Virus record (IMG/VR): IMGVR_UViG_3300020463_000001
Span: 32,001-96,000 of that record
Length of the DNA stretch: 64,000 bases
Direction: 5' to 3' (one strand)
Source of the DNA: a virus
Lineage: Duplodnaviria > Caudoviricetes
The notes under the pieces are model-generated. The model was not told the origin of the DNA. It did not search any database and worked only from the letters and a program-made list of their open reading frames with translations. Below, in pieces: positions 6,701 to 28,676 of the stretch (within the stretch, counting starts at the first letter, position 1; each line of letters begins with the position of its first letter). A program made the translations under genes and the position numbers.

Positions 6701-7368
6701 TGACTAAATTTCATTATAATAACGGAGTACCTACTAATGTTTACTACAATAACCAAGTGGTAAATAAAGTATTCTATACAGACGCAAATGGAAACAATAC
6801 CGAAGTGTGGCCATTAACTCCTGCTACCCCGACTACTCCTGTTGCCCCGACTACTTCAATTGGAACTGCATTGACTGAGGTAGAAGTAACCTCAACTGGA
6901 TCGGGTCAACCTTTTATGCGAATTATTGTGAATTTTTTGGAGAATGGATTTATAGAAATTCGATCTCAGGAAGTAACCGCAATATCTGGTCATTCATTAA
7001 ATACAACTCCGATGCACTCTTCGTCTATTGGATACAGCGAACCTGATCCAACAATGTTTATTCAAGAATCGATTCTTCGAGAATTTAAGTGGACAACATC
7101 CGCAGCATCTAGTTTTTCTGGTTATCAATTTAAGTGCAGCGATAACCAAGGTACGGGATCTTCTTTGACTGAAGGCGGAGTTCTATCTAACTTCGATAAT
7201 TATTATACCTACGCTTACCAAGGCCCAGGCACGTTGGGATTTGTGCAGCTTAGGTTAGATAAAAACGGAATGGGCGATGCATCAAACACACATAAGTTTA
7301 CAATAAAAGATCCAACTGGAAATGAGGCTTCATTTAGTATTGATTTTTCAATTGAGATATCAGCATAA
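6700..7368 (+). CDS. putative fibre-tip adhesin partner
   Basis: TAATG-coupled to the fibre; N-terminal 'VYYNNQVVNKVFY...EVWP', P/T linker, domain paralogous to the C-terminus of 47668..49557. Confidence 0.6.
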   Translation: MTKFHYNNGVPTNVYYNNQVVNKVFYTDANGNNTEVWPLTPATPTTPVAPTTSIGTALTEVEVTSTGSGQPFMRIIVNFLENGFIEIRSQEVTAISGHSLNTTPMHSSSIGYSEPDPTMFIQESILREFKWTTSAASSFSGYQFKCSDNQGTGSSLTEGGVLSNFDNYYTYAYQGPGTLGFVQLRLDKNGMGDASNTHKFTIKDPTGNEASFSIDFSIEISA

Positions 7369-7371
7369 ATA
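7364..7371 (+). promoter_or_regulatory. late promoter variant CATAAATA
   Basis: Precedes the endolysin SD GGAGG. Confidence 0.55.
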
Positions 7372-7395: not shown

Positions 7396-7848
7396 ATGGG
7401 ATTTAATTTATCATCAAGATCATTGAAGAGACTAGACGGAGTTGATCCGGATTTAGTCCAAGTAGTAAAATATGCAATCAAAGAAACCAAGATTGATTTT
7501 GGAGTCATCGAAGGTGTCCGTTCTATTCAGAAACAAGAAGAACTGGTTGCTGCTGGTGCATCACAAACAATGAAGTCAAAACACCTAGAAGGTCGCGCAG
7601 TCGATCTCATGGCTTATATCGGTAGTCGCGGAAGTTGGGAACTCAATGTCTATGATGAAATCGCAGACGCAATGAAAATCGGTGCGGAGAAAGTTGGTGT
7701 TGCGATTCGTTGGGGTGCTGCATGGACTATCAGTGATATCGGTGACTGGGATGGAACGATGGAAGATGCGATGAACTCTTACATCGATACGAGACGATCT
7801 CAGGGTAGAAGACCGTTCATTGATGCCCCTCACTTTGAGTTAATGTAG
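7396..7848 (+). CDS. endolysin, peptidase M15C (L-Ala-D-Glu peptidase)
   Basis: LSSRSLKRLDGV, EGVRS..Q, SKHLEGRAVD, RWG, DAPHFEL zinc-ligand motifs. Confidence 0.9.
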   Translation: MGFNLSSRSLKRLDGVDPDLVQVVKYAIKETKIDFGVIEGVRSIQKQEELVAAGASQTMKSKHLEGRAVDLMAYIGSRGSWELNVYDEIADAMKIGAEKVGVAIRWGAAWTISDIGDWDGTMEDAMNSYIDTRRSQGRRPFIDAPHFELM

Positions 7849-7851
7849 GGA

Positions 7852-7908
7852 CTGTCATAATTCTGTAACATTTTTTTATATATAGTATAGTTGTCACAAT
7901 TTTGTAAC
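7852..7908 (+). promoter_or_regulatory. two Pho-box-like (OmpR/PhoB family) direct-repeat sites
   Basis: CTGTCAT-AATT-CTGTAAC (7852-69) and TTGTCAC-AATT-TTGTAAC (7891-7908); TATAGT at 7881-86. Confidence 0.65.
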
Positions 7909-7928
7909 AATTATATTAGGAGTAAAAA

Positions 7929-8012
7929 ATGTCTAATGTTGCCCTGCTACGGATTCTCAGTCCAATTGCACTTTTTATGGTGTCACCATTCATCTGCGCG
8001 ATGGTATTATAG
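7929..8012 (+). CDS. 27-aa hydrophobic peptide MSNVALLRILSPIALFMVSPFICAMVL
   Basis: AGGAG SD at 7918-22; below the ORF-track cutoff; read by hand. Confidence 0.55.
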   Translation: MSNVALLRILSPIALFMVSPFICAMVL

Positions 8013-8030
8013 TTATATCAACTATCACTC

Positions 8031-8054
8031 TTAGACCAAATCGGTCTAAAAAAA
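8031..8054. terminator. short hairpin TTAGACC/GGTCTAA followed by an A-run
   Basis: 7-bp stem; the U-tract is on the minus strand. Confidence 0.35.
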
Positions 8055-8077
8055 CTTAAATTATTTTCAAAAAGTCC

Positions 8078-8135
8078 TTGACATTATCTCTCAAATCATT
8101 CATAATATACCCAAGTTAGTTGATTTGAGAGATAA
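8078..8135 (+). promoter_or_regulatory. early promoter TTGACA-17-CATAAT with a 15-bp inverted repeat (PeSL-like)
   Basis: TTATCTCTCAAATCA (8084-98) / TGATTTGAGAGATAA (8121-35). Confidence 0.75.
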
Positions 8136-8138
8136 AAT

Positions 8139-8432
8139 ATGCGAATGAAAGGTATTCCAGAACTTCCCCAATCGATGATAAATCAGATGACTCGTAAAGA
8201 GGCTTCTCGGATTGTCAATCGATTCGGTGGATTCGAAGGTGCCTCCAATGGTTCCTATGAGATGCGCCTTAAGTATCTGATGTTGTGCGATAAGTACGGC
8301 GAAGAAAGTGAAAAGGTCGATGACTGGATCATGTACTGGAGGCGCGAACTCAACGCACTCATCAAGCTTCACACTCCCAGAACTCTTTGGGAAAAGATGC
8401 TTTCTAAAATTGGTATTCACATCAAGATATAA
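8139..8432 (+). CDS. hypothetical early protein
   Basis: First gene after the early promoter. Confidence 0.75.
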   Translation: MRMKGIPELPQSMINQMTRKEASRIVNRFGGFEGASNGSYEMRLKYLMLCDKYGEESEKVDDWIMYWRRELNALIKLHTPRTLWEKMLSKIGIHIKI

Positions 8433-28130: not shown

Positions 28131-28676
28131 ATGGCAGGTAAAAGTTTATTTAATAAGGTTCCCTATACAAACTATGACATATTTCTCAACAATAAAAATA
28201 GAGTTGTAAAGAATATATTTAAAGTTGCTCAAGTTGTAGAGAAATATCAAGTAGAACCATCATCTTCATATGAATATATCGTAAAAGACGGAGATACTCC
28301 AGAAATCATTTCTCAGTTATATTATGGTTCTCCTTTATATCACTGGACAATATTAGTATTTAATAATGTAATAAGTTTTTATGACGAATGGCCATTAAAT
28401 TCTTCTGCATTTGCAACCATGATAGCAGAAAAATATGGAGATGTCCTTACTGCAGAAACTACTCCGCACTGTTATGTACATAAAACGAATTCTACAAAAA
28501 TAAGTCCAGAAACTTATAATTTTTTTACCGAAGATTTTGAACGAACACAATATGACTTATATTCTAAGTTTGAATATGAGAATGAACTAAATGAAAAAAA
28601 TAGAGTTATCCGAGTCATAAGAGATGATGTTGTAGATGATTTTGTGAAAGAATATGAAAGAGTTATTAGGTTATGA
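28131..28676 (+). CDS. 53: baseplate wedge gp53
   Basis: YIVKDGDTPEIIS..YYGSP.YHWTIL.FN, EWP, YENELNE.NR.I.VI. Confidence 0.92.
   Translation: MAGKSLFNKVPYTNYDIFLNNKNRVVKNIFKVAQVVEKYQVEPSSSYEYIVKDGDTPEIISQLYYGSPLYHWTILVFNNVISFYDEWPLNSSAFATMIAEKYGDVLTAETTPHCYVHKTNSTKISPETYNFFTEDFERTQYDLYSKFEYENELNEKNRVIRVIRDDVVDDFVKEYERVIRL

Follow-up and report, generated by a model that had tools for sequence, protein, structure and literature searches.

A putative Pho promoter heading a swappable gene slot

A 160-bp stretch that follows the endolysin gene of a T4-like phage is probably a promoter dependent on the phosphate-starvation regulator of the host, and it appears to head a small, swappable gene slot. 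The stretch lies within a 64,000-nt piece of phage DNA (hereafter, the window), which represents bases 32001–96000 of a complete genome (200,733 bp, 38% G+C) with direct terminal repeats; unless otherwise stated, coordinates are those of the window, and all features lie on its plus strand. According to the mechanism that we propose, PhoB~P in a phosphate-starved host would bind an upstream box (box 1) and recruit sigma-70 RNA polymerase to the hexamer TATAGT, 11 nt downstream, and transcription would start at about position 7893, as judged from sequence, geometry, and conservation. By analogy with E. coli phoB, which represses itself, a second box (box 2) would most likely be an operator through which high PhoB~P limits or switches off expression. 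A conserved stem-loop and an early promoter, resembling the promoter-early stem-loop (PeSL) units of T4-like phages, would close the slot and enable cassette exchange; sister phages carry a 103-aa protein in the slot, and the phage of the window and four other haplotypes keep only 27 codons there, which drift at nearly the neutral rate. The layout described in the initial annotation, with two boxes, TATAGT at 11 nt, an AGGAG Shine–Dalgarno (SD) sequence, and a 27-aa ORF, all preceded by the endolysin gene, was present in full.

The genome carries T4-type baseplate, tail, and single-strand-binding genes, phoH, and three tRNAs, and the phage is T4-like, with marine heterotrophs as its probable hosts. 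The initial annotation had seen the locus in the light of cyanophage pstS, and this framing had to be abandoned: the box is of the proteobacterial CTGTCAT type, and psbA and pstS were both lacking from the complete 200,733-bp genome. The cyanobacterial Pho box consists of tandem 8-bp PyTTAAPyPyT/A repeats (PMC10976474), and inspection by eye of positions 7849–7928 revealed none. The type of the predicted box thus argues against a cyanobacterial host. A search of the phage for AsiA gave no match, and the controls were likewise silent.

Box 1 and the −10 hexamer

The endolysin gene (7396–7848) encodes an M15-family peptidase of the L-Ala-D-Glu peptidase type (Pfam PF13539), which shares 61–68% identity with phage endolysin/L-alanyl-D-glutamate peptidase proteins (tblastn). 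It is preceded by a T4-type late-promoter-like element (CATAAATA, 7364–7371; TATAAATA in relatives, which read TATAAATAG at the aligned place). Box 1 (CTGTCATAATTCTGTAAC, 7852–7869) begins 3 nt past the endolysin stop codon and consists of the half-sites CTGTCAT (7852–7858) and CTGTAAC (7863–7869), separated by the spacer AATT. It occupies the place of the −35 element, where the sequence reads TAATTC, and is followed after 11 nt by the −10 hexamer TATAGT (7881–7886), which is TATAAT in the haplotypes with the 103-aa ORF. A consensus promoter scan of the plus strand called no −35-bearing sigma-70 promoter here. The E. coli promoter PphoA is composed of a Pho box, N10, and TATAGT (PMC8601176), and in the bacterial promoters with an 18-mer identical to box 1, a TAnnnT hexamer likewise lies 10 nt past the box, versus the 11-nt gap in the phage.

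The textbook Pho consensus with up to three mismatches matched the genome once, against 0.64 matches expected, which is not significant alone; therefore, a matrix test was needed. The matrix was the published one of 12 E. coli Pho-box sites (PMC3978041 Table S4), the training sites of which score 11.6–21.2 bits. Box 1 scored 21.84 bits, exceeding all 12 training sites, and ranked first among 401,432 genome positions, and its score was reached in none of the 60 simulated genomes. Furthermore, boxes 1 and 2 each fit NTKTMAYHWWHYNKTMAY, a multi-species degenerate PHO consensus on which synthetic promoters for phosphate depletion in E. coli and P. putida were based (PMC8601176), at 18 of 18 positions. 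The genome holds four matches to this consensus, against 2.0 expected, and two matches on one strand within 60 nt of each other occurred in 0 of 200 simulations; the twin box is single-copy in the 200-kb genome. The matrix score, the presence of the same sequence at bacterial Pho genes, the canonical position before a −10 hexamer without a −35 element, and the conservation in relatives (both described below) strongly support the prediction that box 1 is a Pho box, as the initial annotation had proposed. As to the effect of such sites, many PhoB sites in E. coli are reported to be transcriptionally inert (PMC10294691), and predicted Pho boxes in cyanophages are unreliable predictors of binding and regulation (PMC10976474), so that the functional claim made here is a computational one.

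Identical boxes at bacterial Pho genes

The 18-mer of box 1 occurred in identical form 23 times in approximately 186,000 one-per-species bacterial and archaeal genomes, and at least 10 of these 23 occurrences immediately preceded a gene of the Pho regulon that had the same orientation. The genes behind it were pstS in L130 and L145 (one passing the NCBIfam PstS equivalog cut-offs and the other a PstS-family model; here and below, L numbers designate individual contigs or genomes), phoB in two Cellvibrio genomes (L149, passing the equivalog cut-off with 364 bits, and L148, with the same context), a gene for a PhoB-like regulator, with PhoB as the best match, in a member of the Bryobacterales (L131), phosphate-selective porin O/P operons in four Thermodesulfobacteriota genomes (L128, L134, L135, and L147), and a PHO4 transporter gene in a marine gammaproteobacterial MAG (L142). 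The marine gammaproteobacterial MAG with the identical box before PHO4 also encodes a P450 that is 53% identical to the phage P450, which is too little to name it as the host.

The phage genome encodes no OmpR/PhoB-type DNA-binding domain (Trans_reg_C), and an unrelated T7-like marine phage (L002 and L004, from IMG/VR) carries an identical 22-mer, CTGTCATAATTCTGTAACATTT, followed by N10-TATACT. Therefore, the protein that reads the box is most likely host PhoB. That the repeats are read instead by another OmpR-family regulator, or by an unrecognised phage factor, is most improbable. Many winged-helix regulators do bind direct repeats with a 10–11-bp period, the opposite-strand half-sites GTTACA may resemble those of OmpR, and TGTAAC repeat arrays are common in phage contigs; however, another regulator would not account for the exact 18-mer before pstS, phoB, phosphate porin, and PHO4 genes or for a score above every E. 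coli training site, the Trans_reg_C domain is missing from the phage, and a motif found at one locus only is a poor fit to a general class of phage promoters.

Conservation of the promoter among relatives

Pattern scans and look-ups of IMG/VR, JGI, ENA, and Logan contigs turned up eight haplotypes of the locus. Among GenBank phages, megablast with the locus gave no matches; a distant blastn search matched the endolysin only. All haplotypes share the order endolysin, twin boxes, SD, ORF, stem-loop, early promoter, and 97-aa gene. In the 57-nt core from box 1 to box 2, the window did not differ at all from L001, L006, and L126 (0/57), with endolysin synonymous divergence of 0.24–0.27, and it differed at 2/57 sites from L124, 4/57 from L104, and 6/57 from L153; synonymous differences in the adjacent endolysin gene were 0.24–0.33 across the core comparisons, including those with L104 and L153. 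At a neutral divergence of approximately 0.25, the probability of zero changes in 57 sites is near 1e−7. The endolysin itself is constrained as a protein, with pN of 0.01–0.04 versus pS of 0.24–0.36 among relatives (dN/dS about 0.07; pS 0.27 and pN 0.02 between the window and L001).

Within the heptamers, the changes were confined to positions that are degenerate in the Pho consensus (C/T at positions 1 and 7 and C/A at position 5), the sole exception being CTGCAAC in L153; box 1 was invariant or altered only at degenerate positions in seven of the eight haplotypes. The −10 hexamer alternated only between TATAGT and TATAAT, and the spacing of the boxes stayed fixed despite indels immediately ahead of box 1 and of the SD sequence. 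The boxes, the −10 hexamer, and their spacing are under strong purifying selection. The initial annotation had let its reading stand or fall with the conservation of the boxes in relatives, and they were kept across all eight haplotypes.

In L151 (360–440) and L152, the endolysin stop codon has changed from TAG to TAC, and the frame runs for four more codons and ends at a TAA inside box 1, so that the endolysin coding sequence overlaps the Pho box. Separately, one contig from an RNA library spans positions 7917–8144 and another covers part of the endolysin gene; such contigs cannot reveal a start or a strand, nor prove that they derive from RNA at all.

Between L104 and L153, only 7 of 312 nt of the 103-aa ORF differ, whereas the genes flanking it have pS values of 0.24 and 0.68. 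Clearly, the cargo moves between phages. The boxes could accordingly be conserved mainly as a recombination flank homogenised by cassette exchange, or they could bind PhoB without any transcriptional effect. The exchange of cargo, the known mediation of swaps by PeSL-type flanks (PMC4122927), and the inert PhoB sites of E. coli mentioned above all fit such a reading, which we nevertheless judge to be very unlikely. Recombination gives no reason for a top-scoring Pho box to match exactly those in front of bacterial pstS and phoB, for substitutions to spare the specificity positions, or for the −10 hexamer and the spacing to persist; moreover, the ORF between the two conserved flanks diverges freely, and the flanks are therefore not simply young.

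A second box over the predicted start site

Box 2 (TTGTCACAATTTTGTAAC, 7891–7908), with the half-sites TTGTCAC (7891–7897) and TTGTAAC (7902–7908), covers the predicted start site, from about +1 to +16; being downstream of the −10 hexamer, it does not share with box 1 the feature of replacing a −35 element. On the E. coli matrix, it scored 13.54 bits, which is inside the E. coli range and ranks third in the genome; chance would supply approximately 4.6 sites of this quality per genome, and box 2 is therefore not significant by itself. It carries weight because it lies 39 bp from the top-scoring site, is kept in relatives, and reaches 19.2 bits in the haplotype of L151/L152, where it reads CTGTCATAATTTTGTAAC. 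The 39-bp spacing on the same strand was invariant in all haplotypes. RNA structure at box 2 did not go beyond that of shuffled controls (z +0.5), which rules it out as the cause of the conservation; the region being unstructured as RNA, its conservation points to a role at the DNA level. We also considered a second PhoB-dependent promoter past box 2, and rejected it because there is no usable −10 hexamer at the proper distance and its start would hit or pass the SD sequence.

Besides its activating Pho box, E. coli phoB has a weaker PhoB site at the core promoter, through which transcription is repressed at high PhoB~P (Gao and Stock 2018, PMC6194859). That site comprises two overlapping antisense half-sites, whereas the putative operator of the phage is a full box on the same strand, and the sources consulted contain no direct precedent for a Pho box located just after a −10 hexamer. 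A more elaborate, distinctly unlikely reading is that the twin boxes form a PhoB band-pass switch, with the stub in the slot as a retained membrane micropeptide, or with boxes on multi-copy phage DNA that soak up PhoB. With a high-affinity activating box at −35 and a weaker operator over +1, the cassette would be active only when PhoB~P is at intermediate levels, or for a short burst soon after a starved cell is infected. If this were true, an ocean phage infecting heterotrophs would read, and possibly rewire, host phosphate signalling without carrying a phosphate-uptake gene.

Contents of the slot

Downstream of box 2, an SD sequence (AGGAG, 7919–7923; AGGAG, AGGA, or GAGG in all haplotypes) lies 5 nt before the ATG of a 27-codon hydrophobic ORF (MSNVALLRILSPIALFMVSPFICAMVL, 7929–8012, ATG to TAG). 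The short form was present in most of the recovered contigs, and five haplotypes keep exactly 27 codons, with GRAVY values of 1.6–1.9. In L104/L125, L151/L152, and L153–155, the slot between the same promoter and the same stem-loop is filled by a 103-aa ORF (L104:3491–3802, L151:439–750, and L153:1061–1372), which encodes a protein with an N-terminal signal peptide and two cysteines and ends in a TAG stop homologous to that of the short ORF. The signal peptide is nearly invariant among the carriers, and the mature part varies. The 103-aa protein has three close relative clusters only and belongs to no family in Pfam or NCBIfam; its AlphaFold model was poor (pLDDT 53, all-beta), and the only leads from the ESM Atlas were weak ones, DUF6491 (0.87) and viral clusters without a name.

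The signal peptide of the 103-aa protein was the sole relative of the 27-aa peptide that was found. The short ORF aligns with it ungapped, with BLOSUM62 P values of 0.0002–0.004 for the L001 and L006 types (the L001-type matches include W8, P12, and A22–Y23) and a borderline P of 0.05–0.07 for the window type in composition-preserving shuffles. At the DNA level, 30–35 of 78 nt agree with the 5′ end of the 103-aa gene, which is no better than at other in-frame offsets. The 27-codon ORF is probably a stub of the signal peptide of the 103-aa secreted protein, and the simplest reading of these sequences would be an old in-frame deletion that fused signal-peptide codons to the original stop, followed by drift. 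As the good ribosome-binding site has been kept, the 27 codons are probably still translated.

The initial annotation had interpreted the ORF as a phosphate-responsive micropeptide, which might act on PhoR, a transporter, or lysis timing. A functional membrane micropeptide, perhaps a co-opted signal peptide that targets a membrane protein of the host or the membrane as such, is in our estimation unlikely. In its favour is the retention of a good SD sequence, the ATG, and 27 hydrophobic codons in five short haplotypes. In addition, the two classes of short-form alleles differ at 17/84 nt (window versus L001), and the absence of change in the promoter (0/57) despite this divergence indicates that selection still acts on some part of the short-form cassette. 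Against the micropeptide, the same 17 differences give pS 0.23 and pN 0.20, that is, a dN/dS of about 0.9, versus about 0.07 for the endolysin; purifying selection on the ORF was not detected, in a comparison that has low power with 27 codons. Neutral simulation left the frame open 65–79% of the time, and the retained open frame and the hydrophobicity were not beyond neutral expectation (P 0.06–0.12). The alignment to the signal peptide of the 103-aa protein likewise counts against an independent micropeptide, and we found no support for an action on PhoR, a transporter, or lysis timing. A role as a holin or in lysis timing was also set aside as unsupported, the ORF having only 27 residues and sister phages carrying a periplasmic-type protein in the slot. 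The short ORF illustrates how what looks like a micropeptide gene may be all that is left of a larger one. Returning to the stub reading, the conservation of a promoter over a seemingly useless stub is puzzling: because the promoter is strongly kept over drifting codons, the stub, its transcript, or PhoB binding itself should still be of use.

The downstream boundary of the slot

Behind the ORF, a stem-loop (8031–8049) with a 7-bp stem (TTAGACC/GGTCTAA; −8.5 kcal/mol, z −5.5) is followed by an A run, and its stem is invariant in the haplotypes, variation being confined to bases of the loop. We rejected an intrinsic terminator here, as there is no U tract and the terminator scan made no call. 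A strong sigma-70-type early promoter, TTGACA-17-CATAAT (8078–8106), which agrees with the consensus at 11 of 12 positions, comes next, and the stretch of 70 nt between the ORF stop and the early −35 element shows 1–5 differences among the haplotypes. Judging from its sequence, this stem-loop and early promoter form a PeSL-like unit that would bound the slot downstream. Searching the genome by blastn for further copies of the 70-nt unit returned only the unit itself and a 24-nt hairpin copy; this second copy of the stem-loop (CTCTTAGACCAAATCGGTCTAAAA, 23/24 nt) is located at genome positions 28388–28411, 3.6 kb before the start of the window.

The boundary leads into a 97-aa early gene (8139–8432), the conserved downstream neighbour, which is 70–95% identical in relatives and belongs to no Pfam family. 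Around the early −10 element lies a 15-bp inverted repeat (8084–8135; −20.1 kcal/mol, z −6.0), the right arm of which (8121–8135) holds the GAGAGA ribosome-binding site of this gene, and relatives show compensatory changes in both arms. Read-through transcripts would hide the ribosome-binding site, and transcripts begun inside the loop would not. The repeat resembles the promoter-dependent translational control of the T4 genes e and soc.

Comparison with known systems

Phosphate limits growth over large ocean areas, and the use of the host phosphate sensor by phages has been demonstrated mainly in cyanophages. The present locus makes it possible to test whether the nutrient status of a host other than a cyanobacterium gates phage genes, and its layout, with an activating box, a −10 hexamer, and a second box, offers a test bed for PhoB switching on and limiting one promoter.

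As in proteobacterial PhoB promoters such as E. coli phoA and pstS, the phage promoter has an 18-bp box of two heptamers with an A/T spacer, which replaces the −35 element, and a TAnnnT −10 hexamer. Unlike those promoters, it is set in a lytic T4-like phage, has a −10 gap of 11 rather than 10 nt, and carries its second full box just past the −10 hexamer, not upstream in phase. Host control of phage genes as such is already known: host PhoBR controls genes of the cyanophage S-PM2d (PMC10976474), as it does pstS of P-SSM2 according to the work cited in that paper, and host PhoB binds Pho boxes at stx2 on the prophage BP-933W (PMC3978041). Like S-PM2d and P-SSM2, the phage described here is a marine T4-like phage with host PhoB sites, in this case predicted ones, before its own genes; unlike them, it has a CTGTCAT box, and its cargo is an orphan secreted protein or a stub, not a phosphate-uptake gene. 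It shares with BP-933W the placement of Pho boxes before phage-borne cargo (binding being predicted here), but BP-933W, a lambdoid prophage of a temperate phage, resides in an enteric host and carries a toxin operon as cargo.

PeSL cassettes border swappable small ORFs in T4-like phages (PMC2839356, PMC4122927), and here too a stem-loop and then an early promoter border a variable ORF that is replaced between conserved flanks; in contrast to the PeSL of T4-like phages, the unit is single-copy, and the upstream flank is the putative Pho promoter rather than another PeSL. What appears to be new is the combination, in a marine T4-like phage that lacks phosphate-uptake genes, of a proteobacterial-type box with a sigma-70-type −10 hexamer, a second box over the predicted start site, and a promoter that would head swappable orphan cargo.

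Related boxes in other phages and bacteria

Degenerate-box matches in viral contigs numbered more than 100, and they were mostly TGTAAY repeat arrays or coding sequence, not the twin-box element. Arrays of TGTAAC/TGTAAT with a 10–11-bp period were frequent in phage contigs (e.g., L025, L034, L043, and L058); some are inverted terminal copies at contig ends, with an iteron-type look and unrelated to the locus. In the T4-like IMG/VR contigs L041 and L066, three or four phased heptamers (AGTCAC, CTGTCAC, and CTGTAAC) lie directly before TTGACA and a TATAAATA late element and precede a 79-aa gene, a gene for a small membrane protein, and an IscA/HesB-like gene.

Among bacteria, the four Thermodesulfobacteriota genomes with porin O/P operons (L128, L134, L135, and L147) and another MAG (L141) have a second box 22 nt upstream of the identical Pho box. 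Behind these boxes is a conserved, Cys-containing ORF of approximately 62 aa (MECPxLKG...), followed by the phosphate porin O/P gene; the ORF has no family match and may represent an undescribed member of the Pho regulon. In a Rickettsiales MAG (L129:5356–6961), a 521-aa GH108 + CHAP protein that resembles a phage-type lysin is encoded 22 nt downstream of the exact Pho box, and this may be another lysis-related gene beside a Pho box. In the T7-like marine phage (L002:3040–3260 and L004:870–1190), CTGTCATAATTCTGTAACATTT is preceded by TGTAAC repeats and located upstream of SSB-like, primase-helicase, and DNA polymerase genes, and the phage may therefore hold its replication genes under the control of host PhoB.
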